DNA of 54,007 nucleotides, taken from the NCBI GenBank assembly GCA_031404695.1, contig JANNIB010000313.1:1-54007 (forward strand), written 5' to 3'. A model generated the notes under the pieces. The model worked only from the letters and a program-made list of their open reading frames with translations. It was not told where the DNA came from and searched no databases. The stretch is from Acidobacteriota bacterium. GTDB taxonomy: Bacteria; Acidobacteriota; Vicinamibacteria; Vicinamibacterales; UBA2999. The position numbers and the translations under genes are program-made. Of the stretch, positions 9,435-28,230 are shown one piece after another (positions within the stretch are counted from its first letter, which is position 1; each line of letters begins with the position of its first letter).

Positions 9435-9940
9435 GCGTCTCGTATCAGCATCCCGCTCCGGGCATGAGCACGATCTTCTTCGGCGCCACCGGACTCCATC
9501 TGCGCTACCGCTGCGACACCATCGGTCACCGCATCGTCGTCACCGACGAATCAGGCTCGGTCGTGCGCGTGTTCGGCGGCTTCGGCCGCAAGGCCGGCGC
9601 GCTCGATTCGCCGCTCGACGTGGTGTTCGTGCGGCCGGAGTTTGCCGGCGAACACCTGCCGGTGGATTCGGCCGATGCCGTCTGGGTGGCCGTAGCCGAC
9701 TACGGCAACCGCCGCGTGCAGGTGTTCGACCTCGACGGCAGCGTCGTCGGCGAGTTCGCCATCGACGCGCCGGGCGGCGAGCCGTGGACGCCGACCGGTC
9801 TGTCGTGGCGGTCGCCGGTGCTCGAGATCGAAGGCATCGAAGGCGCACACACCGCCGTGCATCTGAGCGCGGCGCTGCTGGCCGGCGCCGGTCGCACGGC
9901 TTACGGACGCACGGCGCCGGGCAGAGAGGCGCGGCACTGA
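9431..9940 (+). CDS. small NHL-repeat-like protein (two to three blades only)
   Basis: HRIVVTDESGSVVRVFGGFGRKAGALDSPLDVVFV and VWVAVADYGNRRVQVFDLDGSVVGEF match the NHL repeat pattern (aD.gN.RvqvFd..G). Confidence 0.6.
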   Translation: MSVSYQHPAPGMSTIFFGATGLHLRYRCDTIGHRIVVTDESGSVVRVFGGFGRKAGALDSPLDVVFVRPEFAGEHLPVDSADAVWVAVADYGNRRVQVFDLDGSVVGEFAIDAPGGEPWTPTGLSWRSPVLEIEGIEGAHTAVHLSAALLAGAGRTAYGRTAPGREARH

Positions 9941-12774: not shown

Positions 12775-13840
12775 CGCCACCCAGGTGCGCATCGGCGGCC
12801 GCGTGGCCGGTGATGGCGCGCCGTTGTTCGTGATTGCCGAGATCGGCCTGAACCACGACGGCTCGATCGAGCGCGCGCTGGCGCTGGTGGATGCGGCGGC
12901 CGTGGCCGGCGCCTCCGCCGTGAAAGTACAGGCGCTTTTCGCCGACGAGCTGGTCGCGCCGGGTGCACCGGCGCCGATGCACGTCGAGGCCGCGTCGCTG
13001 GCCGACTTCTTTCGGCGCTTCGAACTGGACGAGGCCGGCTACGCCCGGCTGGCGGTGCGGGCCCGCGAGCGCGGCCTGGCCTTCATCGCCACCCCGTTCT
13101 CCGAGCGCGCGGTCGACATGCTGGAGCGCGTGGGCGTGGACGCCTGGAAGATCGCCAGCGGCGACATCACCTTCGAGCGCCTCATCGAGCGCTGCGGCGC
13201 GACTGGGAAGCCGGTCATCATCTCGACCGGCATGGCGTCGCTGCCCGAGGCGCAGCGCGCGCTCTTCTGGGCCGAGCGCGCCGGCGCCGGCGGGGTGGCG
13301 CTGCTGCACTGCGTGTCGGCGTATCCGGTGCCCAAGGGCAGCGAGAACCTGCGCGCCATCGCCACGCTCGGCATGGCCTGCCGGGCTGTCGTCGGCTTCT
13401 CGGATCACGGCGCCGACGGCTTCTCGGTGCCGCTGGCAGTGGCCATGGGCGCCGCCATCTACGAGCGCCACCTCGTGCTGCGGGCCGGCGACGACAGCAT
13501 CGACGCCGAGGTGTCGAGCACGCCGGGCGAACTGGCGGCCCTGGTACGCGCCGCGGCGCGGGCGCAGGCCGCGCTCGGCACCGGCGTCAAGGCCTGTCTT
13601 CCGGCAGAGAAGGGGAACAGTGATCCCAGCCGTCGCGCGCTCTACGCCCGGCGCCGGCTGCCGGCCGGTCACGTGGTCGCGGCCACCGACCTCATCGCCT
13701 TGCGACCGGCCTGCGGACTGGGCGCCGATCGCCAGCGCGAGCTGGTCGGGCAGCGGCTGGGCCGCAACGTCGATGCCGGCGCGCCGTTCCAGCCCTCCGA
13801 CCTGCACGCGCATGACAAGGGGACCGAACATGTCGCTTAA
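12764..13840 (+). CDS. NeuB-family nonulosonic acid synthase (PseI/LegI/SpsE-type) with C-terminal SAF domain
   Basis: PLFVIAEIGLNHDGSIERALALVDAAAVAGASAVKVQ, AWKIASGDITF and HCVSAYP are NeuB-family motifs. A SAF-like tail is present. Confidence 0.9.
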   Translation: MLPDATQVRIGGRVAGDGAPLFVIAEIGLNHDGSIERALALVDAAAVAGASAVKVQALFADELVAPGAPAPMHVEAASLADFFRRFELDEAGYARLAVRARERGLAFIATPFSERAVDMLERVGVDAWKIASGDITFERLIERCGATGKPVIISTGMASLPEAQRALFWAERAGAGGVALLHCVSAYPVPKGSENLRAIATLGMACRAVVGFSDHGADGFSVPLAVAMGAAIYERHLVLRAGDDSIDAEVSSTPGELAALVRAAARAQAALGTGVKACLPAEKGNSDPSRRALYARRRLPAGHVVAATDLIALRPACGLGADRQRELVGQRLGRNVDAGAPFQPSDLHAHDKGTEHVA

Positions 13841-14834
13841 CGTGCTCATCACGGCCGGCTCGCGGCGGGTGCCGCTGGTGCGCGCGTTTCAGCGGGCGGT
13901 GGCCCATCACCGCGGCGGCAGCGTCGTGGTCACCGACGTGAACCCGTTGTCGCCGGCCGTGCACGCCGCCAACCGCGCCTACCGGGTGCCGCTCTCCACC
14001 GCCCCCGACTACATCGACGCCATCCTCGAGATCTGCGTCGGCGAACGGATCGGGCTGGTGGTGCCGACCATCGACGACGAGCTGGTGATCTTCGGCCGTG
14101 CCGCCGGCCGCTTCCTCGAGCATGGCGTGCGGGTGGCAGTGTCGCCGGCGGCGACCTCCGAGCTGTGCGAGGACAAGTACGCGACCTGCCGGTATCTGAA
14201 TGCCCGCGGCATTCCGGCCGCCGACTCGTGGCTGCCATCGGCGCTGCCCGAGACCCCGGCGTTCCCGCTCTTCATCAAGCCGCGACGCGGCCGGGGCAGC
14301 GTCGGCGCCTACCCGGTGCGCACCCGGCGCGAACTCGACTTCTTCGTCGACTACGTGCCTGACGCGGTCGTCCAGGCCTACCTCGATGGCCCCGAGTTCA
14401 CCATCGACCTGCTCTGCGACTTCTCCGGCCAGCCGCTCAGCATCGTGCCGCGCCGCCGCGACGTGATCCGCGCCGGCGTGAGCGACCGCGGCCGCACCGT
14501 GAACGACCCGGCGCTCATCCAGGTGGCGCGCACCTGCGCGGCCACCCTGCAGTTTGCCGGCGCCGTGAACATCCAGTGCCGCCTCGTGGACGGACGGCCG
14601 GTGGTGTTCGAGATCAACCCGCGCTTCTCCGGCGGCATTCCGCTGACCATTCACGCCGGCGCCGATTTCCCGCGCATGCTGGTCGATCTCACCGCCGGCG
14701 TGCGCGTGGCGCCGTCGATCGGCCGCTTCCGAGACAACCTCTGGATGGCCAGCTACGAGACCTCGGTCTTCCTCGACGGCACCCGCATCACCCTCCCCGA
14801 ATTCGCCCCGACCTGTGTAGAGGACGTCGCATGA
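13830..14834 (+). CDS. ATP-grasp family ligase
   Basis: LFIKPRRGRGSVGAY...VQAYLDGPEFTIDLL...NIQCRLVDGRPVVFEINPRFSGG is an ATP-grasp signature. Confidence 0.8.
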   Translation: MSLNVLITAGSRRVPLVRAFQRAVAHHRGGSVVVTDVNPLSPAVHAANRAYRVPLSTAPDYIDAILEICVGERIGLVVPTIDDELVIFGRAAGRFLEHGVRVAVSPAATSELCEDKYATCRYLNARGIPAADSWLPSALPETPAFPLFIKPRRGRGSVGAYPVRTRRELDFFVDYVPDAVVQAYLDGPEFTIDLLCDFSGQPLSIVPRRRDVIRAGVSDRGRTVNDPALIQVARTCAATLQFAGAVNIQCRLVDGRPVVFEINPRFSGGIPLTIHAGADFPRMLVDLTAGVRVAPSIGRFRDNLWMASYETSVFLDGTRITLPEFAPTCVEDVA

Positions 14835-15550
14835 GTGCCCGCGCTGCCATCGTCGTTCAGGCCCGCATGGGCTCCACCCGTCTGCCCGGCAAGTCGCTGT
14901 CGCCGATCGCCGGCCGGACGCTGCTGGCGCGCGTGGTGGAGCGTCTGCTCCATCAGGGCGAGCTGCCGGTCGTGCTCGCGACCACCACCCTGCTCGAAGA
15001 CGACCTGCTCTGTGAGGAAGCCGAGCGGCTCGGCGTCGCGGTGCTGCGTGGCTCGGCTGACGACGTGCTGGGCCGCTACGCCTTCGCGGCGTCGCTGCTC
15101 GACGTGCCGGCCATCATCCGGGCGACCGCGGACAACCCGGCCATCGACCTCGCCGCCGCGGTGCGCACGCTCGACATCCTGCAACGCTCGGGGGCCGACT
15201 ACGTCGTCGACTACGGCCTGCCGGTGGGCGCCACAGTCGAGGCGATGAGCGTGGCCGCGCTCGTGCGCGCGGCGGCGCTGGCGACCGACGCCTACGACCG
15301 CGAACACGTGACGCCCTTCATCCGCCGCGACGGCCGTTCGCGGGCGGTGGACGCGCTGGCGCCGACCGACCTGCGCCGGCCCGACCTGCGCTTCACGGTC
15401 GATACGGCCGACGACCTCGACTACATGCGGCGCGTGTATCTCGAGGCCGGGCCGTCCGACCAGCCGTGGCCGCTGGCCGCGCTCATCGAGGCCGCGGACC
15501 GCGTGCGCGTGCGGACCGAGCTCGAACAGACAGGAGCGGATGCACGGTGA
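14831..15550 (+). CDS. SpsF/PseF-type cytidylyltransferase (CMP-nonulosonic acid synthetase candidate)
   Basis: AAIVVQARMGSTRLPGKSL is the SpsF-like cytidylyltransferase N-terminal motif. ATGA overlap with the ATP-grasp gene. Confidence 0.8.
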   Translation: MSARAAIVVQARMGSTRLPGKSLSPIAGRTLLARVVERLLHQGELPVVLATTTLLEDDLLCEEAERLGVAVLRGSADDVLGRYAFAASLLDVPAIIRATADNPAIDLAAAVRTLDILQRSGADYVVDYGLPVGATVEAMSVAALVRAAALATDAYDREHVTPFIRRDGRSRAVDALAPTDLRRPDLRFTVDTADDLDYMRRVYLEAGPSDQPWPLAALIEAADRVRVRTELEQTGADAR

Positions 15551-16377
15551 CCACCCCACGACGCGTCTCCGACGCCGCGTTCCTCTTCAGCGTGCCGCTG
15601 ATGGTGGCGCTGGTCGTGGGCGCCCAGTCGCTCGACGGCGGCACCATCAGCACGCTGCTGCAGCCGGCGGCGGCGCTGGTCGTCTTCGGCGGCACCGCGG
15701 CGGCGGTGCTCTTCAGCTTCCCGCTGGCGCTGCTGGCCCGCACCGGCCGGGCGCTGGCGGCGGCCTTCGGGCGCCGTCCGGAATCCGACACGGCGCTGCT
15801 GACGCGGATGGGCGAATACGCCACCCGCGCCCGGACCCGCGGCACCTTGTCGCTCGAGAACGAGCTGTCGCGCAGCGACGATCCGTTCCTCATCCGCGCC
15901 CTGTCGCTGGTCGTCGACGGAGTGCCGGCCGCCGACGTGCGCCATACGCTCAAGACCTTCAGCCAGGTGCGTGAGGAAGCCGACGCCGAGTGCGCGCTCG
16001 TGCTCGAGGCCGCCGGCGGCTACGCGCCGACGCTCGGCATCCTCGGCGCCGTGCTCGGCCTGATCCAGGCGATGGAGCACCTGACCTCGCCGGCCAGCGT
16101 GGGGCCCGGGATCGCCGTCGCGTTCGTGGCCACCGTCTACGGCGTCGGCGCCGCCAATCTCGTATTCCTGCCGCTGGCGACGCGGCTGCGCAGCCTCGGC
16201 CGGCAGGCGGCACTCAGCCGCGAAGTGGTCATCGAAGGCGCGGTGGCGATTCAGCAGGGCATCCATCCGACGCTGGTGGACGGCCACCTGCGCAGTCTGC
16301 TCACGGCCTGGCACGGCGCGCCGCGCTACGCCGTGCCCACGGAGGGCGGGACGCGGGCGCGTCTCGTGAAGTCATGA
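15547..16377 (+). CDS. motA: flagellar stator protein MotA/PomA-type (copy 1)
   Basis: Multi-TM protein. IAVAFVATVYGVGAANLVFLPLATRL is the MotA/TolQ/ExbB channel motif. It is paired with an OmpA-domain MotB. GTGA overlap with the cytidylyltransferase stop. Confidence 0.85.
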   Translation: MTTPRRVSDAAFLFSVPLMVALVVGAQSLDGGTISTLLQPAAALVVFGGTAAAVLFSFPLALLARTGRALAAAFGRRPESDTALLTRMGEYATRARTRGTLSLENELSRSDDPFLIRALSLVVDGVPAADVRHTLKTFSQVREEADAECALVLEAAGGYAPTLGILGAVLGLIQAMEHLTSPASVGPGIAVAFVATVYGVGAANLVFLPLATRLRSLGRQAALSREVVIEGAVAIQQGIHPTLVDGHLRSLLTAWHGAPRYAVPTEGGTRARLVKS

Positions 16378-17063
16378 ACATCCGGCTCTCAGCCACGCAG
16401 GTGTCGCGCGATCGGTGGCTCATCTCCTACGCCGACTTCATGACGCTGCTGGTGGCGTTCTTCGCGACGCTGTATGCCGCGTCGCTGACCGAGACCGCGG
16501 TGACGACCGCACCGGCTCCGACCGAGACCGCCGCGCCGGCTACCGCGCCGCCGGAGGCGCCACCGCCCCCTGATCCGGCCGTGGCCCTGCGGGCCGAGGT
16601 CGAACGTGCGCTGGCGCCGGAACTCGCCGCCGGTTACCTGCAGCTCATCGAAGATCCGCGCGGGCTCGTCATCGAAGTGCCCGAAGCCGGCGCCTTCGAC
16701 GTCGGGCAGGCGGACCTGGCGCCGGAGGCGGCCCAGATGCTGACCCGTGTGGCGACGATGCTGACGACGCTGCCCAACGCGGTGCGCATCGAAGGCCACT
16801 CCGACACCACCCCGATCCGCACCTCGCAGTACGCCTCGAACTGGGAGCTCTCGACCGCGCGGGCGACCTGCGTGGTCGAGTTCCTGGTGACGACCGCCGG
16901 CCTGGCGCCGTCGCGGCTCTCGGCCGCCGGCTACGCGGAGTTCAAGCCGCGCGCCGCCAACGACACGCCAGCCGGGCGGGCCCGCAATCGGCGCGTCGAT
17001 CTGGTGCTGCTGAACGAGCGGACGACGCGGGCCGAGGAACCCGCAGGGAGCGCCCGTCCATGA
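16374..17063 (+). CDS. motB: flagellar stator protein MotB-type (copy 1), OmpA-like C-terminal domain
   Basis: WLISYADFMTLLVAFF has the conserved TM Asp. VRIEGHSDTTPI...NWELSTARA...NRRVDLVLL is an OmpA/MotB peptidoglycan-binding domain. Confidence 0.85.
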   Translation: MNIRLSATQVSRDRWLISYADFMTLLVAFFATLYAASLTETAVTTAPAPTETAAPATAPPEAPPPPDPAVALRAEVERALAPELAAGYLQLIEDPRGLVIEVPEAGAFDVGQADLAPEAAQMLTRVATMLTTLPNAVRIEGHSDTTPIRTSQYASNWELSTARATCVVEFLVTTAGLAPSRLSAAGYAEFKPRAANDTPAGRARNRRVDLVLLNERTTRAEEPAGSARP

Positions 17064-18208
17064 GATGCCCCTTTTCGCCCGACGAGCTCGAGCGTCTGCT
17101 CGATCGGCCGGTGCGTCATCTGCTCGGCCCCGCCGACCGCAAACGCTACGCCGGACAGCGTCTGCTCATCACCGGGGCCGGCGGCTCGGTGGGCTCCGAG
17201 CTCTCGCGTCAGCTGGCCGACTGCGGGCCCGATGTGCTGACGCTGGTCGATCACTCGGAGCTGCATCTGTTCGAGATCATGAAGGAGCTGGCGGATCGCG
17301 CGCCGGGGCTGGTGGTCGAGCCGGTGCTGGCCGACATCTGCCAGCAGCCGCTCGTCCGCCGCGCTGTCGCGCAGGCCGCCCCTGACGTCGTCTTCCATGC
17401 CGCCGCCTACAAACACGTGTCGATGATGGAACGCGACGTCTGCGCGGCCGTCGGCGCCAACGTCGTCGGCACCGCCAACGTCGTGGCGGCGAGCCGCGAG
17501 GCCGGGGCGCGCTTCGTGCTCATCTCGTCCGACAAGGCCGCCGCGCCGCGCAGCGTCATGGGAGCGACCAAGCGGCTGGCCGAACTGGTCACGCTTGCCG
17601 CCACCCCTGGCGACGCGCGGCCGATTGTCGTGCGCTTCGGCAACATCCTCGGCAGCAGCGGCAGCCTGCTGACGATCTTCCGCGATCGCATCCGCCGCGG
17701 CCTGCCGCTGGCGCTGACCGACCCGCTGGCCACCCGCTACGTGATGACGGCAGGGGAAGCGGTCGCCCTCGTGATGAAGGCGGACCTGCTGGCCCGGCGG
17801 CCCGAGACCTACTGGCTCGACATGGGCGAGCCGGTCGGCATCGGCGATCTCGCAGGCCGCCTGCTGGCGATTGAGGCCGAGGCGGGATTTGCGCGCGTGC
17901 CGATCGAGGTCGTTGGCCTCGGCCCCGGCGAGAAGCGCCGCGAGGAGCTGACGACCCAGGGGCTGCGGATGTGTCCGACGGCGCACCGCCGCATCTGGGT
18001 GGCGCGCCAGAAAGCCAACGACGGCGCGGCGGTGACGCGCGCCGTCGAACGGCTGCGGCGGCTGGTGGAGCAGGGCGAGGCCGAGGCCACGCTCGACCTG
18101 CTGGTCGCGGCGGTGCCCGACTTCGCGGCCAGCGACGAGGCGTGGGCGAGCGCCCGCCGCCGGGGTGCCCGAGGCCTGCGGCGCCCCGTGCTGCCTTGCA
18201 GCGCGTAA
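17060..18208 (+). CDS. CapD/WbpM/PglF-type nucleotide-sugar 4,6-dehydratase (soluble form)
   Basis: LLITGAGGSVGSEL is a Rossmann motif. FHAAAYKHVSMME contains YxxxK. ATGA overlap with motB. Confidence 0.85.
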   Translation: MRCPFSPDELERLLDRPVRHLLGPADRKRYAGQRLLITGAGGSVGSELSRQLADCGPDVLTLVDHSELHLFEIMKELADRAPGLVVEPVLADICQQPLVRRAVAQAAPDVVFHAAAYKHVSMMERDVCAAVGANVVGTANVVAASREAGARFVLISSDKAAAPRSVMGATKRLAELVTLAATPGDARPIVVRFGNILGSSGSLLTIFRDRIRRGLPLALTDPLATRYVMTAGEAVALVMKADLLARRPETYWLDMGEPVGIGDLAGRLLAIEAEAGFARVPIEVVGLGPGEKRREELTTQGLRMCPTAHRRIWVARQKANDGAAVTRAVERLRRLVEQGEAEATLDLLVAAVPDFAASDEAWASARRRGARGLRRPVLPCSA

Positions 18209-18216
18209 CGGAGGCC

Positions 18217-19344
18217 ATGGTGCGCATTCTCCATCTCCTCTCGTTCGTCAGCGGTGCGGCCGGCAACACCGTGACCGAGCTGGCCGTCGGTCAGAAGCGC
18301 GCCAGCCATCAGGTGACGGTCGTCACGTCGAAGACGCCGGTCGGCGGACTGATGAACGTCGCGCCGCTGATGCGCAAGCTCACCGACTCTGGCGTCACAG
18401 TGCATGAGATCGACTCGCTGGCCGCCCGGCAGATGGGGCCCAACGCCGCGGTCGTGCAATGCATCCACGATCAACTGGGCTCTGCCGCGGCCTTCGACGT
18501 GCTGCACACGCATGGCACCGTGCCGAGCGTCATCGCGATTGCGGCGGCCAAGCGGGTGAGTACACGGGTGCCGATCCTGCAGACCTCCCACGAATGGACC
18601 GTATCGCGGCCCGGCACCGGCCGTCAGGCCTACGACCTGGAAGTGATGAACCTCGTGGACCGTGCGGTGGTGCCGACGTGGGCGGTGGCGGAGCACTTCG
18701 TGGCGCGCGGCGTGGTGCCCCGCCAGTTGGCGGTCGTGCCCTACGGGGTGCTGCCCGATCCACCGCCCGCCTCGGGTGATCATCTGGAACTCGAGATGCG
18801 CGCCTGGCGCCAGGCCGGCGGCCTGGTGCTGTGCTACGTGAGCGCCACCACGACCGCGCACGACCAGCGGCTGCTGCTGCACGCGCTGCCGTTCGTGGAT
18901 CCCCGGCTCCACATCCTGTGCGTCTTCTTCGGCGGATCCGAAGCGCGCGAGACCGCGCCATGGCCGCACGAAGGGCCGGTCACCGTGCGGGTCGCGGCGC
19001 CCGATGCGGCCGTGCGGCAGTACTCCCACGAAGCGGACTTCCTGGTGCTGCCGTCGGGCGACGGCGACCAGCCGCTGGCCGTGCTCGAGGCGTTCTGCGA
19101 TCAGGTGCCGGTGGTGGCCAGCCGCGTGCCGGAGCTGGTCGAGTTCATCGACGACGGCCAGACCGGCTGGCTGTTCGACCCGACCGACACACGCGCTCTC
19201 GCCGAGACGCTGAACCTCGCCCGGACCACGGCGCCGAATGCGCTGCGGGCGCTCTGCCAGCGGGCGCGCGTGCGTTACCAGACCGAGTTCACCATCGACC
19301 GGATGGTGAGCGGCTACATGCGCGAGTACACGCGGCTGTCGTGA
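18217..19344 (+). CDS. glycosyltransferase, GT-B fold (GT4/GT1-like)
   Basis: The N-terminus is RILHLLSFVSGAAGN. The C-terminus LVLPSGDGDQPLAVLEAFCDQVPVVASRVPELVEFIDDGQTGWL has the E-x7-E region. A GGAGG Shine-Dalgarno is present. Confidence 0.8.
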   Translation: MVRILHLLSFVSGAAGNTVTELAVGQKRASHQVTVVTSKTPVGGLMNVAPLMRKLTDSGVTVHEIDSLAARQMGPNAAVVQCIHDQLGSAAAFDVLHTHGTVPSVIAIAAAKRVSTRVPILQTSHEWTVSRPGTGRQAYDLEVMNLVDRAVVPTWAVAEHFVARGVVPRQLAVVPYGVLPDPPPASGDHLELEMRAWRQAGGLVLCYVSATTTAHDQRLLLHALPFVDPRLHILCVFFGGSEARETAPWPHEGPVTVRVAAPDAAVRQYSHEADFLVLPSGDGDQPLAVLEAFCDQVPVVASRVPELVEFIDDGQTGWLFDPTDTRALAETLNLARTTAPNALRALCQRARVRYQTEFTIDRMVSGYMREYTRLS

Positions 19345-19458
19345 CTCCGGCCGGCGTGTCGGCGTGGCGTCCGCCGCCGCCCGGCCCACCGTCGGCCCGC
19401 CGACACCCGGCTTCGACGGATTGCACAGGATCGCCGGGCCTCGCCAGCCCCGCCGGCG

Positions 19459-19474
19459 CGGCACACACGTTGCT
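19459..19474 (+). promoter_or_regulatory. sigma-54-type promoter upstream of the second glycosylation operon
   Basis: CGGCAC-ACACG-TTGCT, versus the consensus TGGCAC-N5-TTGCW. The predicted start site is only about 2 nt before the ATG at 19487, which is a caveat. Confidence 0.45.
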
Positions 19475-19486: not shown

Positions 19487-21145
19487 ATGGTTTCCCCGAC
19501 CGTCCGCCTCGAATCCACGCCCACCGGCAGCGATGCCGGACACCAGCGGCGTCCTGCTCCGGCCGCAAGCCCACTGGCCGTCGGCCTCTTCAACGACAGC
19601 GCCGATGACGCGCAGGTCGTGAGCCTGGCCGTCTCGCACGCCCACCGCCGCATGCTGCAGCGGGCCGGGGCCCACGTGCGCCACGCCTACTTCCGCGGCG
19701 ACTGGCAGGAACTCGGCACCGGCACCCTCGACGAGGCGGTGGCTGCGGCCCTCGCCTCGCAGGAACTGCGACGCGTCTTCGCCGACATCGACGTGGTCGT
19801 CGTGGCCGGCGATACCTTGCGGGCGCAGCGTCACCGCCACCTGCTGGCCATTCTCGGCGCCGCGCAGCACCTCGACCTGCCGACCTACCTCGTGAACGCG
19901 ACCGTCGGCCCGCTCGACGAAGGCCACGACATCCTGCGCGGGCTCGCCGATTGCACCGTGCGCGACGCCGCCAGTGCCCGCGTCCTCAAGGCCCTCGGCG
20001 TGGCCCATCGTCGCGTCGCCGACTCGGTGTTCGGCGCCCCGTTTGGCGTCACCGCCCGGCGCGACTTCTCCGATCATCTGGTGGTCACCGATTGCCATCC
20101 GTCGCGCCGGGTGGAGTTCACGGCGGACCTGGCGGTCGTGCGCGGCGCCTGGCCAGGCATGGTGGCCGACTATCCGCTCGATGCGCCCGGAGGTTCGCTT
20201 GACTGGACCTCGGCGGTGGCCGACCTCGGCACCGCCTCGGCCGTCCTGACCGGCGGACGCGACGGCGCCAGCCTGGCGCTGCGGGCCGGGGTGCCATTTG
20301 TCGCGCTCGGCCTCGAGGGCGAGGCCATCGACTTCATCGAGACGCTCGACGGCTACCCGGCGGCGGCCGCCGATCCGGCGCGCCCGCTCGACGCGCGGCT
20401 CGCCTCGGCCATCGAGGCGCGGGCGTGGTTCGTCGAGACCGCGGCCCGCTGCCAGACCCGCGGCCCCGCCGAGGCCTTCTCGCGCCTGCGGCCGAGCATG
20501 GTGCCGAGCGGCCGCGACGATGCCTGGACCGGCGCCATCGAGGGGGTCATGGACGTCGTGTGCGGGCTGACCGCGGCCGGCGGCAGCGTGCTGCATGCGG
20601 GTGCCGGTCAGGGGCAGCTGGTCGAAGCGCTTGCCCGGAGCGGCTTGCGTGCCTGGGGCACCGACGTCGCCCGCCGGCTCGATCGTCCCGACCGCAACCG
20701 CTACTCCAGGGCGACGCCGATGGCGCTGCCATTTGCCGATCACGTCTTCTCGACGGTGGTCGTCTCGGCCGACTGGCTCGAACACCTCGAAGCCGATGAC
20801 CTCGACGCCGCGGTCGGCGAGCTCGCGCGCGTCGGCCGCGACACGCTGGTCGTCGAAGTGTCGGGACGTCCGGTGCGCGCCGAGCGCGCCTTCGAAGAGC
20901 GCCTGACTGACGACTGGTGGCGCCGCCGCCTGTCGATGCTCGGACTGCGGCTGCACGATCTCGCCGACACGCTCGTCACCCATGGCGCCGGCCCCACTGG
21001 CGGCACCTTGCTCGTCATGTCGGCGCAGGCGCAGCTCTGCCCGAGCTGCCGGCGCGTTCACGCGCCGGCCGACGCCATCGAGCCGGTGCATCCCGGGGTG
21101 CTGATGGCCGCCGCCGACGCGCGCGCCACGGCCCTGCGCCGGTGA
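19487..21145 (+). CDS. fusion protein: polysaccharide pyruvyl-transferase-like N-terminal domain plus class I SAM methyltransferase domain
   Basis: The N-terminal part has VGLFNDSADD...DVVVVAGDTL...YLVNATVGPL...VRDAASARVLKALGV, which is PS-pyruvyl-transferase-like. The C-terminal part has VLHAGAGQGQLVEALARSGLRAWGTD...FADHVFSTVVVSADWLEHL, a methyltransferase motif I/post-I pattern. The start is uncertain; the track ORF begins at 19364. Confidence 0.6.
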   Translation: MVSPTVRLESTPTGSDAGHQRRPAPAASPLAVGLFNDSADDAQVVSLAVSHAHRRMLQRAGAHVRHAYFRGDWQELGTGTLDEAVAAALASQELRRVFADIDVVVVAGDTLRAQRHRHLLAILGAAQHLDLPTYLVNATVGPLDEGHDILRGLADCTVRDAASARVLKALGVAHRRVADSVFGAPFGVTARRDFSDHLVVTDCHPSRRVEFTADLAVVRGAWPGMVADYPLDAPGGSLDWTSAVADLGTASAVLTGGRDGASLALRAGVPFVALGLEGEAIDFIETLDGYPAAAADPARPLDARLASAIEARAWFVETAARCQTRGPAEAFSRLRPSMVPSGRDDAWTGAIEGVMDVVCGLTAAGGSVLHAGAGQGQLVEALARSGLRAWGTDVARRLDRPDRNRYSRATPMALPFADHVFSTVVVSADWLEHLEADDLDAAVGELARVGRDTLVVEVSGRPVRAERAFEERLTDDWWRRRLSMLGLRLHDLADTLVTHGAGPTGGTLLVMSAQAQLCPSCRRVHAPADAIEPVHPGVLMAAADARATALRR

Positions 21146-21150: not shown

Positions 21151-23061
21151 ATGGCCACCCGCGAACCCCTCTTCGACCTGCCGCGCCTGCGGCCGCGCTC
21201 CGCCGCGGCCCGCCAGCCCCTGCGCCTCCTCCACGTCACGGTCGGCCACAGCCCCCCGGGGCCGTCACTGGCCGAGGCGATCCACGCCGCCAGCCGTGGC
21301 GCTATCCGTGTCGACACCGCCCTCGGTCTCGGTCGTGCGCTCGACCATCTGCGTGCTCATCCCGCCGCTCTGGTGCTGCTGCAGGCGGAAGACGCCGACC
21401 TGGCCCGGGTCGCGCTGGCCGAAATCAAGCGCACCCACCCGGCGCTCCCGGTGGTGCTGCTCACCGATGCCGACGACGCGGCCGCCGTGGCGGCGGTGCG
21501 CGCCGGCGCCGAAGACTGCCTGTCACGCGCGGCGGCTACCGGGCCCCGGGTCGTGCGGGCGCTGCTGTGCGCCCTCGAGCGCACCAGCCACGCGGCGACG
21601 CTGCGCACGCAGGCGGTGACCGATCCGCTCACCGGGCTGCCGAACCGGCACGCGCTGCAGAAGGCGATCGATCATGCCATCGCGATGGCCCGCCGCAAGA
21701 GCCGCGCGCTGGCCGTGCTGTTTGTCGACCTCGACGGCTTCAAGGACATCAACGACGCCTGCGGCCACGAGCAGGGCGATCGCGTGCTTCAGGAGATCGC
21801 GCGCCGCTTTGCCGGCCGCACCCGCAGCATGGACACGGTGGCCCGCATCGGCGGCGACGAGTTCGTGGTGGTGATGGAAGATCTCGACGACAGCCGGTTC
21901 GCGTCCACGCTCGCCGGCAAGCTGCTCACGGCGGCCGCCGCGCCGATCGTGGTCGAGGGCCGCGTGACCGAGCTCACCGCCAGCGTCGGCATCAGCGTGT
22001 TCCCGGGGGATGGCGACGACGCCGCGGCACTCATCCGTCATGCCGACACCGCGATGTACGCGGCCAAGGCGGCGGGGAAGAACCAATACCGCTACTACCG
22101 CGCGCAGATGAACGAGCACTCGCGCGCCCGCACCGTGCTCGATGCGGCGCTCGCACGCGCGTTCGAGGGCGGCGAGTTCGAGCTGCACTACCAGCCCGTG
22201 TGGCAGTCTTCGGCGCGGCGCATCTCGTCGTGCGAAGCGCTGCTGCGCTGGCGCCGGCCCGGGCACGGCCTGATGCTGCCGGGGGCCTTCCTTGCGGCGG
22301 CTGACGAATCCGGCCTCGCGGGACGCCTCGCCCAGTGGGTGCTGACACGCGGTGGCGCCACCGCCCGGCGGATGCGCGAGGCCGGGTTCGACGTGCCGGT
22401 GTCGATCAACCTGTCGCGCCGGCAGCTGGTCGAAGGCGACATCGTGTCGTGCCTGGGGCGCGTGCTCGCAGACGGCACCGACGCCGCCGCGCTGCGCGTC
22501 GAGATCGCCGAGTCGGTGCTCGTCGCCGACGACCCGCGGGTGCACCAGGTGCTGGCCGACCTGGCCGGGCTCGGCATCGGCGTCATCGTCGACGACTTCG
22601 GCAGCGGCGTGTCGTCGCTGCGGGCGCTGCGCCGGGTACGCCCGCACAGCATCAAGATCGACGGCGCGCTGGCGCGTGAGCTGCCCGACGGGCACGACGC
22701 GGCGGCGCTGGTCAGCGCGGTCGTCTCGCTCGGCAAGACGCTCGGCGTGCACGTGGTGGCCGAAGGGGTCGAGACCGAGGCGCAGTCACGCCGTCTGCGG
22801 ACGCTCGGCTGCGACGACCTGCAGGGCTACTATTTCGGGCACGCGCTGCCCGATGACGAGTGGCTCGCGTATCTGCGCTGGGCGTGCACGGCGGTGGTAG
22901 GAACCGACGGGCCGGCCCCGGCGCTCGTGGTGCGGCGTCCTGGCCGTAGCCGCCGGGCCGCTGCGACCCCGTTCGCTGACGGCGCCGGCATGCCGGGCAT
23001 TCCCGGCGCGCCGCGCCTGACCAGGACCGGGCAGGTCGTGTTCGGCCGCTTCACGGATTGA
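21151..23061 (+). CDS. receiver-like domain plus GGDEF plus EAL protein (c-di-GMP turnover)
   Basis: RSMDTVARIGGDEFVV has the RxxD I-site and an intact GGDEF. The EAL side shows EALLRW, NLS, EIAES, DDFGSG, KIDGAL, EGVET and QGYYF. The N-terminal receiver-like fold has LVLLQAED where the acceptor Asp is expected. Confidence 0.9.
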   Translation: MATREPLFDLPRLRPRSAAARQPLRLLHVTVGHSPPGPSLAEAIHAASRGAIRVDTALGLGRALDHLRAHPAALVLLQAEDADLARVALAEIKRTHPALPVVLLTDADDAAAVAAVRAGAEDCLSRAAATGPRVVRALLCALERTSHAATLRTQAVTDPLTGLPNRHALQKAIDHAIAMARRKSRALAVLFVDLDGFKDINDACGHEQGDRVLQEIARRFAGRTRSMDTVARIGGDEFVVVMEDLDDSRFASTLAGKLLTAAAAPIVVEGRVTELTASVGISVFPGDGDDAAALIRHADTAMYAAKAAGKNQYRYYRAQMNEHSRARTVLDAALARAFEGGEFELHYQPVWQSSARRISSCEALLRWRRPGHGLMLPGAFLAAADESGLAGRLAQWVLTRGGATARRMREAGFDVPVSINLSRRQLVEGDIVSCLGRVLADGTDAAALRVEIAESVLVADDPRVHQVLADLAGLGIGVIVDDFGSGVSSLRALRRVRPHSIKIDGALARELPDGHDAAALVSAVVSLGKTLGVHVVAEGVETEAQSRRLRTLGCDDLQGYYFGHALPDDEWLAYLRWACTAVVGTDGPAPALVVRRPGRSRRAAATPFADGAGMPGIPGAPRLTRTGQVVFGRFTD

Positions 23062-23068: not shown

Positions 23069-24118
23069 ATGTCCACGACCCGGCCGCGGCCAGCCACGGG
23101 ACCAGTGCCAGGCACCGCGACGACGGCCGAGGCGCCGGCGGCGGGTGCGGTGCCGTATGACTTCGGCCACGGGCTGTCGGAGGCGTTCCCCTCACAGGTC
23201 ATCATCGACGCGACCGAACTCTGCAACCTGTCGTGCACCCACTGTCCGCATCCGGCGTTCAAGCGGTCGTCGCACTACGGCGGACGATCGCTCAGCGTCG
23301 AGATGTGCGCCAAGGCGATCGGCGAAGTGGCGGATGCGGGTCGGGGGCACGTGCAATACGTCCGCTTCGCCAGCGACGGCGAGCCGCTGCTGCATCGATC
23401 GATCTTCACGATGCTGGCCGACGCCGTGCGGCGGTCCGGCACGTTCGTCTCGCTGACCACCAACGGCACCCTGCTCACGGAGTCGCGCATCGAGGCGCTG
23501 CTCGCGACCGGCGTCAACCTGGTGGACGTCAGCATCGACGCCTGGTCGGCGGAGACCTACGCGAAGATCCGGGTGCGGGGTGACCTCGCGGTCACCCGCG
23601 CCAACGTGATGCGGCTCATCAACCGGGCGCGGGAGACGGGCGCCGGCCTGCGCGTCGCCGTCAGCTTCATCGAACAGCCCGGCAACGCGCACGAGACCGG
23701 CGACTTCCAGCGGTTCTGGACCGACGCCGGCGCACACTCGGTCGCCATCCGCCGGCTCCACTCGGCCTCGGGCGCCGTCATCGGCGTCGCCGAGGTGATG
23801 CGGGGCAAGGCCGCGCAGCAGCCGCGTCGCCCGTGCGTGTATCCGTGGGATCGCGTGGTCGTGACGCCGCGGGCCACGCTCGCATTCTGTCCGTCGGACT
23901 GGACCGGTGGCTCATCGCTCGTGGACTACCACACGACCACGATCGCCGAGCTCTGGCGGAGCCAGGGCTACGCGGCGCTGCGCACCGCCCACCTGACCGG
24001 CGACTACAGTCACCACGCCTTTTGCGGGCAGTGCCCCGACTGGCAGGAGACCCGCTGGCCGGGTCAGGGCGCGACCTACGCCACCCTGGTCAGCAACCTG
24101 AAGGAGACGGCCGCATGA
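23069..24118 (+). CDS. radical SAM enzyme with Cys-rich SPASM/twitch-like C-terminal extension
   Basis: CNLSCTHCPH is the CxxxCxxC cluster motif. C-terminal cysteines occur in PCVYPW...FCPSDW...FCGQCPDW. Confidence 0.85.
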   Translation: MSTTRPRPATGPVPGTATTAEAPAAGAVPYDFGHGLSEAFPSQVIIDATELCNLSCTHCPHPAFKRSSHYGGRSLSVEMCAKAIGEVADAGRGHVQYVRFASDGEPLLHRSIFTMLADAVRRSGTFVSLTTNGTLLTESRIEALLATGVNLVDVSIDAWSAETYAKIRVRGDLAVTRANVMRLINRARETGAGLRVAVSFIEQPGNAHETGDFQRFWTDAGAHSVAIRRLHSASGAVIGVAEVMRGKAAQQPRRPCVYPWDRVVVTPRATLAFCPSDWTGGSSLVDYHTTTIAELWRSQGYAALRTAHLTGDYSHHAFCGQCPDWQETRWPGQGATYATLVSNLKETAA

Positions 24119-24849
24119 CGCCCGCCCGTGTCGTGACGCCGCTGGTCACCGAGATCGAGACCCTGGTGGACGGCGTGCCCGGATGGTCGCCCATCGACGA
24201 ACTGTTCACGCTCTCGACCCTGGTCTACGCGACCGCACACCTGCCGGGCGACGTGGTGGAAGTGGGGTCGTGGTTCGGTCGATCGGCGATCGCCCTCGGA
24301 GCGGCGGTGCGTGACACGCACGGACTGGTGCACTGCATCGATCCGTTTCCGGCCCGCGACGACTGGCGCCAGAACGCCGACGGCACCTACTCCTTCGAGG
24401 TCGACATCGACGGCCGGCGCCATGCCGGCTATCAGGAGCAGACCGTGTGGAGCGCTCCGTTCGAAGAGTCCCTGGCGCCGGTGTACGCGCGGCAGGGCAG
24501 CGTCTTTGAGGGGTTCCAGGCCAACATCCGCAGCCGCGGTCTCGAGGCGGTCGTGCGGCCGCACCGCGGCACCACGGCGACGTTTGCCGCTCAGGCGCCG
24601 CCCGGCTTCCGATGCCGGCTGATCTTCCTCGACGGCGATCACGGCGCCAGCGCGGTTGACGACGACCTGACGCGGTTGCTGCCCTGTCTGGTCGAGGGCG
24701 GCTGGATCTGCTTCGACGACGCGTTTTCGGTCTACGAGGGCGTGGACCGGGCCATCACGACGCACATCATCGAGAGCCCGGCCTTCGACATCAAGCGGCA
24801 GATGACCCGCAAATGTTTTGCGGCCCGCAAGGCCGCACGCGCGCAGTGA
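24115..24849 (+). CDS. class I SAM-dependent methyltransferase (Methyltransf_24-like)
   Basis: VVEVGSWFGRSAIALG and LIFLDGDHGASAVDDDL...GGWICFDD are family-typical. ATGA overlap with the radical SAM gene. Confidence 0.7.
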   Translation: MTPARVVTPLVTEIETLVDGVPGWSPIDELFTLSTLVYATAHLPGDVVEVGSWFGRSAIALGAAVRDTHGLVHCIDPFPARDDWRQNADGTYSFEVDIDGRRHAGYQEQTVWSAPFEESLAPVYARQGSVFEGFQANIRSRGLEAVVRPHRGTTATFAAQAPPGFRCRLIFLDGDHGASAVDDDLTRLLPCLVEGGWICFDDAFSVYEGVDRAITTHIIESPAFDIKRQMTRKCFAARKAARAQ

Positions 24850-24874: not shown

Positions 24875-25585
24875 ATGACACGGGTCGGCATCATTCAATC
24901 GAACTACATCCCGTGGAAGGGCTACTTCGACATCATCCACGACGTCGACCTGTTCGTCTTCTACGACGACGTGCAGTACACGAAGAACGACTGGCGCAAC
25001 CGCAACCGCATCAAGACCGAGCACGGCGAGCGGTGGCTGACGATCCCGGTCGGCAAACGCGAGTCGCGGCGTATCTGCGACGTCGCGCTGCCGTCGAGCC
25101 CGTGGGCCCTCGACCACTGGCGGCGGCTCGAAGCGGCCTATCGCCGGGCCCCGTACTTCGAGGTCTACCGCGCCTACTTCGAGGAGTTCTACCTCAGGCG
25201 GCCATGGTCGACGCTCTCGGAGTTCAACCAGGCGCTGGTGACCGGCATCGCCCGTGACCTGCTCGGAATCACGACGCCCTATGTGGACTCGCGCACGTTC
25301 CACCTCACGCAGAGCAAGGGCGGCCGCGTGGTGGAACTGCTGCAGCACGTCGGCGCGTCCATGTATGTGTCGGGCCCATCCGCCAAGGCCTACATCACCG
25401 ACGAGGGCTTTCTCGCCGCGGGCATCAGGGTGGAGTGGAAAGACTACCGGGGCTATCCCGAATACGACCAGTTCCATGGCCCGTTCGTCCACGCGGTGAC
25501 GATCCTCGACCTGTTGTTCCACACCGGGCCCCTGGCGCCGTACTACATCTGGGGCTGGCGGGCTGCCGGCCGGGTCGCGGCGTGA
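24875..25585 (+). CDS. WbqC-family protein
   Basis: VGIIQSNYIPWKGYFDIIHDVDLFVFYDDVQYTKNDWRNRNRIK is the characteristic WbqC N-terminus. Confidence 0.8.
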   Translation: MTRVGIIQSNYIPWKGYFDIIHDVDLFVFYDDVQYTKNDWRNRNRIKTEHGERWLTIPVGKRESRRICDVALPSSPWALDHWRRLEAAYRRAPYFEVYRAYFEEFYLRRPWSTLSEFNQALVTGIARDLLGITTPYVDSRTFHLTQSKGGRVVELLQHVGASMYVSGPSAKAYITDEGFLAAGIRVEWKDYRGYPEYDQFHGPFVHAVTILDLLFHTGPLAPYYIWGWRAAGRVAA

Positions 25586-28230
25586 GCGGGTCGCCGGAAG
25601 TCACCGCCGACGCCGACCGCTGGCTGGACGGCGCGGCCATCGATCAGTCGGCGGTGCTGTTCGTGATCGGCCTGGGTGACGGGCAACTGCTGGCGGCGCT
25701 GGCTGGTCGCGGCTGGCGGGGGCAGGTCGTCGCGCTCGAGCCTGGCGGCACGTCGCCGCTGACGCCGTCTGCGGCCCTGACCATCCTGACCGGCCCCGGC
25801 TACGACGGGCTCGACGACGTGGTCAGAACGCTCGACCCCGATCGTGACCAACCAGTGGTCGTCGGCGATCCGGCGGTGATGCGGGCCTATCGCGACGAGG
25901 CGGTGAGGGTCAGCCGGCTGGTGGTGCGCGCGTGGTTCGGCGCCCGCGCGAATCAGGAGGCGCGGCGCAAGTACGCGGGGCCGTACCTGCTGAACACGCT
26001 CAGAAATCTTCCAGCGATTGCTGCCGCTGAGGATGCGGGCGCACTCGTACACGCGTTGCCAGGGCTGCCGGCCGTGTTGGTTGCCGCCGGGCCGTCACTC
26101 GACGTCAACCTGCCGGAGATCGTCGCTCATCGCGACAAGGTCGTCCTCATCGCGGTGGACACGGCCGTGCGGCCGCTGCTCACTGCCGGTGTGGAGCCTG
26201 ACTTCGTCGTCGCGCTCGATCCCAGTGACGTCAACGCGAGTCATCTCGTCGATCTGCCGGCGTGTCCGCGGACCTGGCTGGTGGGCGAGGGGAGCCTCGA
26301 TCCGGTCGCCTTCGATGCCTTCGCGGGTCGCACATTCGTGTTCCGGGTGGCCGACCATCACCCCTGGCCGTGGCTGCGCCGGATCGGCCTGGATCGGCAG
26401 CCGCTGCGAGCGTGGGGGTCGGTGCTCACCACGGCCTTCGATCTCGCGCTGCAGATGGGCTGCGACCCGATCGCGTTCACCGGCGCGGATCTGGCCTTCT
26501 CGGGCGGGAGGCCCTACGCGCGCGACACCACCTTCGAGGAAGAATGGCGCCGGGCGCGGGCATGGGGCGACTCGCTCGAGACCAGCTGGGCGCAACGCCT
26601 CGCGGCGTGGCCCGAGACGTTCGAACCCGGCGTCGACGGCACCCGCGCGCGCACGGCCCCGCACCTGTGCGCCTTTCGCGACTGGATTACCGCCGAAGCC
26701 GCCCGTGTCCCCGGTCGCGTGGTCGTCAATGCCACCGGCGCCGGCATCCTGGCCGGACCGGCCGTGCGGCAGGTGACGCTGACCGAGGCCCTTCGCGGCC
26801 GCGAGCCGCTGGCGGTCTCCGCGTCGGAGGTGATGCGGCGACGGCAGGCGAGTGGCCAGCGACGCGCCCACATCGCGGTGCCGCCGGTGAACGACGACGT
26901 GCGCCATGACTGGCAGACGTTTGTCGGCGTGAGCGCCGAGGCCATCGACGACGCCCTGCGGGCGCCGGCGCCCGCTGACGAGTCGGCCCCTGCCGCGCTG
27001 CCTGGCTCGGCGGAGGCGGCCACCCAAACCGACGCCGACGAACGTTATCTGCAGGGCCTTGCGGGCACGACGTCGCTGCGGCGCTACCGCGTCACCCGTC
27101 CCGACCAGGACCTGCTCGGCGAACTGCGTGCACTGACGCGCGGGCTCAGCGCCTCCGACGCGATCGTCGTCGTGGACGAGATCGGCGTGGGCGCCGGCGC
27201 GCAGGTGCGGCAGGCCGTCGACGTGCTTCTCTGCGAGCGGCCCGACCTCTGGCTCGAGTACCGACGGTTCGTCGATCACGCTTCGCGTCTCACGATCCTC
27301 CGCGGTAAGGCGTCGCGCCTCACGCCGCCGGCGCACCAAGCCGATCGGGCCAAGTGGGACCCGCAGCACGCGGCGGTCGCGTCGGAGCTCGTGCCGCTTC
27401 TGGCACGTCAACTTGGTCCCCGCAGCGTCGTCGACCTCGGGAGCGGCGCCGGCTACTGGCTGCGCGCCTTCGAAGCCGCCGGGGTGACCGACGTGCTGGG
27501 CGTCTCCGCCCGCACGACGCCGCTTGGCGCGGTGCCCGATCCGGGCCGGCGCTTCGACCTGTGTCTGTGTCTCGAGGTGGCGCAGGAGCTGTCGCCCGGC
27601 GATCAGCAGGCACTCGTCGGCGCCTGCGCGCGAGCCAGCGACGTGGTCGTGTTCTCGTCGCGGCTGCCGGGGGCGCCCGGGTCGAGTCCACACGATCGTC
27701 CCCTGCAGTATTGGGCGGAGCTGTTCTGGCGCCACGGCTACGTCCTCGACGACACGCTGCGACAGGTGCTCGAGCGGCAGGCGGACATCCCGCGCTCGGT
27801 GTTCGAGGTGATGGTCACGTTTCGCCGTGCTCGTCAGGCGCCGTTGGTTGCCGACGCGGACGGCGCCGAGGCGACGTTGCGGGAGCTGGCGCTGGCGTCG
27901 GCCGCACGCCTGAACGATCTCTACACGCAGAAGATCTGGTGGGCAGTGGCGGCGCTCGACCTGCGGCAGGCAGCGCAGATCGAGGTCCCGCGGCCGGAAG
28001 ACCAGCCCTGGCACATTCCCGCCTCACGCCTCCTGACGTCGACCGATGGCGCGCGCGTATTCCGCTTCCGCACCGGCGCGGCACGCTGGTACGTGACGCA
28101 CCCGGCGTCGACCCTGCGGGTGCTGGAGGACGGGCGTCCGCTGCCAGCCCTCGGCCCCCGGCACGCGGCCGACCGGACCTGGCGGCGGCTGGACGCGCTG
28201 GCGCGACGAGATCCGCGTGTGGTCGAGTGA
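25582..28230 (+). CDS. maf: motility-associated factor (Maf, DUF115/MptE-like) fused to a C-terminal class I methyltransferase-like domain
   Basis: VLVAAGPSLDVNLPEIVAHRDKVVLIAVDTAVRPLLTAGVEPDFVVALDP and AFDLALQMGCDPIAFTGADLAF form the DUF115 core. The C-terminal VVDLGSGAGYWLRAFEAAGV...FDLCLCLEVAQEL is methyltransferase-like. GTGA overlap with wbqC. Confidence 0.8.
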   Translation: MSGSPEVTADADRWLDGAAIDQSAVLFVIGLGDGQLLAALAGRGWRGQVVALEPGGTSPLTPSAALTILTGPGYDGLDDVVRTLDPDRDQPVVVGDPAVMRAYRDEAVRVSRLVVRAWFGARANQEARRKYAGPYLLNTLRNLPAIAAAEDAGALVHALPGLPAVLVAAGPSLDVNLPEIVAHRDKVVLIAVDTAVRPLLTAGVEPDFVVALDPSDVNASHLVDLPACPRTWLVGEGSLDPVAFDAFAGRTFVFRVADHHPWPWLRRIGLDRQPLRAWGSVLTTAFDLALQMGCDPIAFTGADLAFSGGRPYARDTTFEEEWRRARAWGDSLETSWAQRLAAWPETFEPGVDGTRARTAPHLCAFRDWITAEAARVPGRVVVNATGAGILAGPAVRQVTLTEALRGREPLAVSASEVMRRRQASGQRRAHIAVPPVNDDVRHDWQTFVGVSAEAIDDALRAPAPADESAPAALPGSAEAATQTDADERYLQGLAGTTSLRRYRVTRPDQDLLGELRALTRGLSASDAIVVVDEIGVGAGAQVRQAVDVLLCERPDLWLEYRRFVDHASRLTILRGKASRLTPPAHQADRAKWDPQHAAVASELVPLLARQLGPRSVVDLGSGAGYWLRAFEAAGVTDVLGVSARTTPLGAVPDPGRRFDLCLCLEVAQELSPGDQQALVGACARASDVVVFSSRLPGAPGSSPHDRPLQYWAELFWRHGYVLDDTLRQVLERQADIPRSVFEVMVTFRRARQAPLVADADGAEATLRELALASAARLNDLYTQKIWWAVAALDLRQAAQIEVPRPEDQPWHIPASRLLTSTDGARVFRFRTGAARWYVTHPASTLRVLEDGRPLPALGPRHAADRTWRRLDALARRDPRVVE

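Follow-up and report, generated by a model that had tools for sequence, protein, structure and literature searches.

What is an enzyme of cyclic diguanylate (c-di-GMP) turnover doing among genes that would decorate a flagellin? The question is raised by a 54,007-nucleotide (nt) stretch of DNA from a Vicinamibacterales genome of the Acidobacteriota (GenBank assembly GCA_031404695.1, contig JANNIB010000313.1, positions 1 to 54,007; hereafter the window). Here, a gene for a protein with an N-terminal receiver-like domain, a GGDEF domain and an EAL domain (the focal gene) directly follows a gene that we call PyrMT, whose product combines a pyruvyl-transferase-like domain with an S-adenosylmethionine (SAM)-dependent methyltransferase. 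Judged by their predicted products, the surroundings are a Maf-type flagellin glycosylation island with the flagellin as presumed target. c-di-GMP controls flagellar gene expression, motor braking and exopolysaccharide synthases. The reading that we favour, at roughly even odds (a probability of about 0.5), is that the focal protein is a phosphorylation-independent, product-inhibited diguanylate cyclase, in most members of its family also a phosphodiesterase (PDE), which is co-expressed within a sigma54 flagellar programme.

The pseudo-receiver and the two catalytic domains

The focal open reading frame (ORF) runs from an ATG at 21151 to a TGA at 23061, and its orthologues share the same start methionine. 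Pfam assigns a GGDEF domain (PF00990, E = 5.3e-47, 160 bits against a cut-off of 23.8) to residues 155-312 and an EAL domain (PF00563, E = 7.8e-62, 209 bits against a cut-off of 31.3) to residues 332-564; TIGR00254 was matched with 154 bits (cut-off 37.4). The best solved relative is MorA (4RNH, E = 1.4e-96, residues 155-571), and all EAL catalytic residues are present when the window protein is aligned to it. The full-length AlphaFold2 (AF2) model has a predicted local distance difference test score (pLDDT) of 83.4. An exact-sequence look-up of the protein matched no record, and neither the focal protein nor the sugar genes reached an NCBIfam equivalog cut-off. A preliminary description of this DNA, made by inspection of the sequence, had picked out the motifs LVLLQAED, RxxD, GGDEF, EALLRW, DDFGSG and EGVET; each was found at its codons (Table 1). 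The spacing that it gave, 5 nt from the PyrMT stop (21145) and 7 nt to the ATG of a radical-SAM gene (23069), is borne out by the ORF coordinates. It was also right in calling both catalytic signatures intact, as the GGDEF motif, the inhibitory site (I-site) and every EAL catalytic residue are present.

A search with the full-length protein yielded some 50 clusters (624-645 amino acids) with 57-88% identity over full coverage. Beyond these, identity falls sharply to 42-47%, and the matches come from other phyla and cover the GGDEF-EAL region only. The focal protein defines a lineage-specific family. Its closest public relative (locus L001, 98% protein identity) stems from a metagenome bin of an uncultured member of the Acidobacteriota, and more distant relatives are labelled Vicinamibacterales. 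In an alignment of 49 family sequences, the window protein and 48 homologues, the GGDEF motif, the I-site residues R225 and D228 and the metal- and substrate-binding residues D193, D195, N201, D210 and K306 are invariant (49/49); the I-site lies five residues before the motif (RSMD-TVARI-GGDEF). In 17 of the 49 sequences the EAL catalytic site carries at least one substitution, in most cases D482N in the DDFG motif or a change of E538 in EGVE. Of the three domains, GGDEF is the best conserved by mean column identity, and the alpha5 linker reaches a similar value (Table 1).

The N-terminal domain was harder to place. Response_reg (PF00072) stays below its cut-off (21.2 bits against 30.2) and covers residues 88-126 only, and a word-indexed search with the domain alone gave a single match, so that an exhaustive search was needed to place it among receivers. 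An AF2 model built on 37 aligned sequences (mean pLDDT 84.9) shows a (beta-alpha)5 topology of five strand-helix units, after which comes a long alpha5 helix. The top Foldseek matches are the TadZ atypical receiver (the best one, 4lda, E = 1.2e-5) and the receivers of NtrX, RssB and DgcR. A profile of the family's N-terminal domains found the receivers of NtrX (4.5e-7) and NtrC (2.3e-5) in the PDB; with hhalign the match to single CheY and Spo0F sequences was partial or weak. In the alignments, Gln78 coincides with the phospho-Asp of the receivers of NtrX, NtrC and 6oap, and Thr105 with the conserved Thr. The exhaustive search, run over 1.84 billion representatives, gave 623 matches at E <= 0.001, of which the first three belong to the family itself. 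Of the best 143 non-family receivers among these 623, aligned pairwise, 92 have Asp opposite position 78, 125 have Thr or Ser opposite position 105 and 121 have Lys opposite position 126; the counts at 105 and 126 are those expected of receiver domains.

Within the family, Gln78 is found in 48 of 49 sequences. The positions of the acidic pair after beta1 are taken by Val31-Gly32, with an invariant Gly, and at the position of the conserved Lys (126) the focal protein has Arg and the family Leu, Arg or Ala; Thr105 is kept. The preliminary description had proposed a Gln in place of the acceptor Asp and a missing acidic pair. The alignments agree with both and add the loss of the Lys. Since the Gln and the loss of the acidic pair are shared throughout the family, they are a fixed state and not a recent decay. 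From alignments and model, the domain is best described as a receiver fold without phosphorylation chemistry. The receiver is predicted not to be phosphorylatable on the canonical Asp, where Gln is fixed, and with the acidic pair and the Lys gone as well, no kinase input would be possible by this route.

REC-GGDEF-EAL proteins and pseudo-receivers are known kinds, as are c-di-GMP enzymes of flagellar regulons, and the focal protein shares features with several of them. Like PleD, WspR and DgcR, it has a receiver, a helix and a GGDEF domain with an RxxD I-site, and DgcR and PleD are among its sequence or fold hits; PleD also has a second receiver that lacks a phospho-acceptor. However, those enzymes are activated by phosphorylation of the Asp, whereas the focal protein has a fixed Gln, lacks acidic pair and Lys and carries an EAL domain. 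FimX, another of the sequence hits, serves a surface appendage, the type IV pilus, and likewise has a receiver without acceptor Asp in front of GGDEF-EAL. It is a c-di-GMP receptor of REC-PAS-GGDEF-EAL architecture with degenerate GGDEF and EAL motifs; in contrast, both catalytic motifs of the focal protein are intact and a PAS domain is lacking. The atypical receiver of TadZ/CpaE, the top structural match, has the receiver fold, is devoid of phosphorylation chemistry and is attached to a ParA/MinD-type ATPase that has a role in localising the pilus machinery, whereas the focal pseudo-receiver is joined to c-di-GMP domains. MorA, a motility regulator of Pseudomonas, shares the tandem GGDEF-EAL domains, the two intact sites and the link to flagellar motility. 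It is a membrane protein with PAS sensor domains and is not known to have a pseudo-receiver or to be encoded in a glycosylation island; the focal protein has a pseudo-receiver and lies in such an island.

Both ends of the focal protein carry short conserved motifs. The otherwise disordered N-terminal tail (21151-21219) contains FDLPRxRxR, with L10 and R14 conserved to at least 90%. The C-terminal region (22861-23058) consists of WLAYLRWACTAVVGTD, a variable linker and the terminal PG...VVFGRF, in which G632 and F634 are invariant and P618, G619, V630 and R635 are conserved to at least 90%. It is possible that these motifs are docking peptides.

The constant partner of the focal gene and its promoter

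Among 14 related loci, all have a GGDEF-EAL gene after PyrMT (15/15 with the window), at protein identities down to 43%. In every family locus with sequence context (L001-L005 and L081-L087) this gene is the orthologue of the focal gene and follows PyrMT immediately, and junctions in the receiver-bearing family range from a 4-nt overlap to a 5-nt gap. In the loci L088 and L089, distant PyrMT homologues (45-49% identity) are each followed by a GGDEF-EAL gene as well. What comes next varies. Radical SAM through to Maf follows in the window, L001 and L003, and Maf directly in L004, L005, L081, L086 and L087. In L082 and L083 a GT4 gene comes next, and Maf is encoded about 6 kb off on the opposite strand; the contigs of L002, L084 and L085 break off at the focal gene or no more than about 1 kb from it. 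Altogether, Maf belongs to the unit of the focal gene in the window and in 7 of 14 relatives, lies on the other strand in three and is not informative in four loci that are short or fragmented. PyrMT, and not Maf, is the constant partner, and the pair has outlived both the reshuffling downstream and a domain change in the protein itself. As a control, 75 unrelated GGDEF-EAL loci were inspected with 10-kb flanks; none had Maf or NeuB, and motAB was present in one. All positive loci come from one order, the Vicinamibacterales, and shared descent therefore inflates the count.

The GGDEF-EAL genes of L088 (11766-13172) and L089 (11649-13076) encode proteins of 468-475 amino acids without a receiver. 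Their GGDEF motif and RxxD are intact, and the EAL domain lacks the Arg, the Asn, the DD, the Lys and the Glu of EGVE. To judge from these sequences, a product-inhibited diguanylate cyclase behind PyrMT with sigma54-type control is the deeply conserved element, and the receiver and a presumably active EAL domain would characterise the sub-lineage of the window.

The GT4 gene and PyrMT are separated by 142 nt in the window and by 140-192 nt in the relatives. Close to the PyrMT end of this gap lies a putative sigma54-type -24/-12 promoter element, CGGCACACACGTTGCT. It has the GG-N10-GC spacing and one mismatch to TGGCAC-N5-TTGCW, and CGGCA(C/T)-N5-TTGCT is invariant in an alignment of the gap from nine loci, where it is found 11-13 nt before the PyrMT ATG. 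Exact matches to GGCAY-N5-TTGCW number two in the window (0.24 expected) and lie upstream of PyrMT in 14 of 14 related loci. The second copy of the window (CGGCACGCCGATTGCT, 39880-39895) is found 40 nt before the start of a second motA gene. In the nine-locus alignment an inverted repeat, TGTCGGC...GCCGACA, precedes the element by about 55-100 nt and is a candidate activator-binding site; the window contains neither rpoN nor a gene for an activator. A riboswitch or another structured RNA in the 142-nt gap was also considered. Rfam finds only a tRNA in the whole window (at gathering thresholds, 47732-47804, minus strand) and the gap does not fold with unusual energy (z = 0.06); therefore, a promoter is favoured.

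The inverted repeat before the PyrMT promoter is built of the octamer GTGTCGGC, which recurs at 8770, just before a sigma54-like element. This octamer has 17 sites in the window against 7.1 expected. As most of the 17 lie within genes, it was not adopted as a general operator of the island.

The preliminary description had held that the focal gene is almost certainly co-transcribed with glycan-tailoring genes and Maf. The tight embedding stands: junctions in the gene strings are mostly overlaps of 1-11 nt or gaps below 26 nt, and no sigma70 promoters or intrinsic terminators above chance were found inside the string. What does not stand is a single operon, since the conserved gap with its sigma54-type promoter divides it into at least two units, nor is Maf a regular member of the unit. 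By gene order and promoter motif, the focal gene is the second gene of a unit that comprises PyrMT, the focal gene, radical SAM/SPASM, Methyltransf_24, WbqC and the Maf-methyltransferase, ends at 28230 and would start with the sigma54-type promoter. A PyrMT start at 19364, as previously given, is less likely than the one at 19487 (552 amino acids), which the gene caller gives.

Cyclase, phosphodiesterase or glycosylation switch

According to the reading that we prefer, the focal protein would be made only when the sigma54 flagellar programme turns on the flagellin-modification genes. Its core activity would be the synthesis of c-di-GMP by the GGDEF domain, limited by the product via the RxxD I-site. 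The window protein and about two thirds of its family would, through their EAL domain, hydrolyse c-di-GMP as well. A local c-di-GMP signal would then come from a bifunctional enzyme that limits itself. The pseudo-receiver and alpha5 together probably serve dimerisation or the docking of a partner, independently of phosphorylation, and in this way set the activity of the cyclase; the strong conservation of alpha5 suggests, by analogy with PleD, WspR and DgcR, that receiver-mediated dimerisation still has this role. The signal would couple late construction of the flagellum to the behaviour of motor and stator, or feed back on flagellar gene expression. A plausible output is provided by the two stator sets encoded in the same region. 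The glycosylation island also carries motAB and abuts the flagellin gene fliC. The same string carries motAB, and a second motAB and three further c-di-GMP genes lie nearby. Simple membership in a sigma54 flagellar regulon is at least as good a reading as the sensing or control of glycosylation. E. coli PdeH (YhjH) and V. cholerae CdgD differ in architecture from the focal protein; to our knowledge, neither is encoded in an operon for flagellin glycosylation, nor has sigma54-type control beside glycan-tailoring genes been described for them. Both are c-di-GMP turnover genes of the flagellar programme: CdgD stands under the flagellar hierarchy (Syed et al. 2009, as cited there), and PdeH is under flagellar-regulon control, as is YcgR of E. 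coli (PMC9303241).

Several points weigh against this reading. The sigma54 assignment of the PyrMT promoter is based on sequence, and the -12 element is only 12 nt from the ATG, so that the mRNA would have little or no leader or translation would begin at another codon; conservation is poor over the first 25-30 residues of PyrMT. A Pfam match to PilZ or another c-di-GMP receptor was not obtained for any scanned ORF of the window. The organism is known from metagenome bins only. Finally, the EAL site of the window protein is fully intact and the closest characterised relatives (MorA; the DibA- and PdeR-type NCBIfam models) are mostly net PDEs or bifunctional, so the net direction in the window could be degradation.

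The last point leads to the first alternative, a net PDE of the flagellar regulon comparable to E. coli PdeH/YhjH, in which the EAL domain would keep c-di-GMP low and the GGDEF domain would act as a GTP-sensing allosteric activator. The intact EAL site and the PDE-type or bifunctional nature of the best NCBIfam and PDB relatives argue for it, and the co-location with motAB would fit the relief of a motor brake. However, it is the EAL catalytic site that decays, being substituted in 17 of 49 family members and dead in L088 and L089, whereas the GGDEF motif, the metal and substrate residues and the I-site never vary. A purely allosteric GGDEF domain is usually expected to tolerate changes in its active site. 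We consider a net PDE unlikely.

The second alternative, which we likewise judge improbable, is a direct coupling to glycosylation. The pseudo-receiver or the tails would bind PyrMT, Maf or a cytidine monophosphate (CMP)-sugar, and the output would report the glycosylation flux, or c-di-GMP would gate a glycan enzyme. Precedents for gating exist among exopolysaccharide synthases, namely BcsA, Alg44, PelD and PgaCD. That PyrMT is the immediate neighbour in 15 of 15 loci, with junctions as short as described, speaks in favour of such a coupling, as does the fact that the sigma54 unit around the focal gene holds glycan-related genes only; the conserved motifs in the disordered tails could be the docking sites. 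On the other hand, domain scans detected no receptor domain or I-site-like module in the neighbours, Maf is encoded on the opposite strand at a distance of about 6 kb in L082 and L083 and of about 7 kb in L088, and in L088 a second copy of the promoter motif (11740-11754) stands between PyrMT and the GGDEF-EAL gene, directly before the latter, as a separate promoter. In the full-text literature, whose coverage left most subscription journals outside, we found neither a case of c-di-GMP control of protein glycosylation nor a GGDEF/EAL gene paired with a flagellin glycosylation island; co-occurrences of the terms in PMC5835511, PMC7970052 and PMC7996900 were incidental, and PMC5109656 contained none of the terms. 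This agrees with the earlier remark that the placement could not be matched to described systems. A direct effect of the c-di-GMP enzyme on the glycosylation enzymes is conceivable, and the support for the proposal in the preliminary description, that c-di-GMP turnover may be coupled to flagellin glycosylation or may sense it, does not go beyond the gene linkage. The specific proposal that c-di-GMP from the operon-embedded cyclase gates flagellin glycosylation by binding PyrMT, Maf or another island enzyme, or that the pseudo-receiver reads the glycosylation flux, is in our estimation decidedly doubtful.

A catalytically silent receptor or scaffold of the FimX/LapD type, which binds c-di-GMP and localises or regulates a flagellar or glycosylation component, would be in line with the degenerate receiver, as in FimX, with TadZ/CpaE and its role in localisation as top fold match and with the degenerate EAL domain of the distant versions; it is very unlikely, however, as all catalytic residues of both domains are present and the GGDEF site is invariant throughout the family, whereas FimX and LapD have degenerate motifs in both domains. 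Equally hard to accept is a mere passenger, that is, an ancestral insertion of a GGDEF-EAL gene in the island that was kept through synteny without a functional tie: the restriction to one order and the several other c-di-GMP genes in the same genome region would allow for it, but the adjacency persists down to 43-45% protein identity, through gain or loss of domains and through replacement of what follows by Maf, GT4 or radical SAM, with junctions that overlap or are a few nt long.

The island, its flagellar context and its meaning

The features of the window, which has a G+C content of 72%, are listed in Table 1. Pfam and NCBIfam scans agree with the neighbours as previously described. Genes for nonulosonic acid synthesis lie near the flagellin gene (NeuB, DegT/PseC-like, PseG-like, PseB-like and CMP-transferase), all of them below the NCBIfam equivalog cut-offs. 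The motA-motB pair lies downstream of the CMP-transferase and upstream of the PseB-like dehydratase and overlaps each of them by 4 nt. The position after the CMP-transferase is kept in all relatives with sequence reaching there, and the PseB-like gene is absent in some. The fusion of the first Maf to a C-terminal SAM methyltransferase recurs in L005, L081 and L087. Including the focal gene, the window encodes four c-di-GMP turnover genes and two stator sets.

The flagellin gene and the long plus-strand string diverge from the region 8730-8800. By eye and without statistics, a sigma54-like TGGCAT-N5-CGGCT (8782-8797) was seen before the first ORF of the string and a sigma28-like TAAA-N15-TCCGATTA (minus strand, 8763 to 8737) before the flagellin gene; both elements are shared in outline with L089. 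From these motifs, the island looks sigma54-driven and the flagellin gene sigma28-driven. Pfam gives no match for the two ORFs that open the string, and L089 has ORFs of 202 and 172 amino acids, also without Pfam hit, that resemble them in size and position only. The 5' region of the flagellin gene has a strong ribosome-binding site, GGAGGAGA, and fliW is present at the left end; the translation of flagellin may be under control of the FliW/CsrA type.

Table 1 Coordinates of the focal gene, its motifs and domains, and other features of the window (-, minus strand; +, plus strand)
Feature	Position	Strand	Remarks
flgM, flgK, flgL, fliW, GNAT gene	left end		Pfam/NCBIfam scans
fliW	3746-4189		
89-codon frame after fliW	4179-4445		coding-like composition
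fliS, fliD, flagellin	left end	-	adjacent genes
Flagellin gene	7857-8654	-	265 amino acids; presumed glycosylation target
Upstream string	8823-19344	+	two unknown ORFs, PseC-like, PseG-like, HAD, NeuB, ATP-grasp, CMP-transferase, motA, motB, PseB-like, GT4
Head ORFs of the string	8823-9434, 9431-9940	+	
motA	15547-16377	+	Pfam
motB	16374-17063	+	Pfam
Inverted repeat GTGTCGGCG...CGCCGACAC	19356-19406		candidate activator-binding site; gap alignment
Sigma54-type -24/-12 element CGGCACACACGTTGCT	19459-19474	+	12 nt before PyrMT ATG; CGGCAC-N5-TTGCT
PyrMT	19487-21145	+	552 amino acids as called; pyruvyl-transferase-like domain (weak match) and SAM methyltransferase
Focal gene, pseudo-receiver-GGDEF-EAL protein	21151-23061	+	636 amino acids; predicted soluble; Pfam, PDB relatives, AF2 model
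Pseudo-receiver domain, residues 24-130	21220-21540	+	AF2, Foldseek, profile and pairwise alignments; mean column identity 0.70
LVLLQAED	21370-21393	+	motif check; Gln78 codon 21382-21384
Long alpha5 helix, receiver-to-GGDEF link	21541-21621	+	AF2 models; mean column identity 0.84
GGDEF domain with I-site	21622-22095	+	mean column identity 0.83
RSMD (RxxD I-site)	21823-21834	+	motif check
GGDEF motif	21850-21864	+	motif check
EAL domain	22144-22893	+	E362, R366, N420, E451, E454, D481, D482, K502, E538, E541, Q558 all present; mean column identity 0.73
EALLRW	22234-22251	+	motif check
DDFGSG	22591-22608	+	motif check
EGVET	22762-22776	+	motif check
C-terminal tail	22894-23058	+	predicted disordered (pLDDT < 55); ends in conserved PG...VVFGRF
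Radical SAM/SPASM gene	23069-24118	+	Pfam; also in L001, L003
Methyltransf_24 gene	24115-24849	+	Pfam
WbqC-like gene	24875-25585	+	Pfam, 8.8e-74
Maf (MptE-like, PF01973) with C-terminal methyltransferase	25582-28230	+	flagellin glycosyltransferase candidate; 2.1e-32; 4-nt overlap with WbqC
More glycosyl- and methyltransferases, AsnB, second Maf	beyond 28230 to about 39.8 kb		
Second Maf	36467-37675		PF01973, 3.1e-10
Second motAB	about 39936-41684		
PAS-HisKA gene	41351-43360		
GGDEF-only gene	43333-44472		
Receiver-HD_5 gene (HD-GYP-like)	44283-45560		
PAS-GGDEF-EAL gene	47901-49916	-	

Three things appear to be new: throughout a lineage such a c-di-GMP enzyme has a conserved place in a unit for flagellin glycosylation, it is constantly paired with the same glycan-tailoring gene, and its receiver has a fixed Gln. 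If gating of glycosylation were true, a second messenger would decide on the sugar-coating of the filament, and the logic of a dedicated cyclase that feeds a glycan synthase would extend from exopolysaccharides to protein glycosylation. If the enzyme is merely one of the flagellar regulon, the value is smaller; it would then show Acidobacteriota with a tiered sigma54/sigma28 flagellar programme that has c-di-GMP enzymes built in. An abundant, uncultured lineage of soil Acidobacteriota keeps a predicted cyclase, usually with a PDE, behind a glycan-tailoring gene and a sigma54-type promoter. This offers an entry point to the questions of whether the decoration of the filament is under second-messenger control and how a receiver with a fixed Gln works without phosphorylation.

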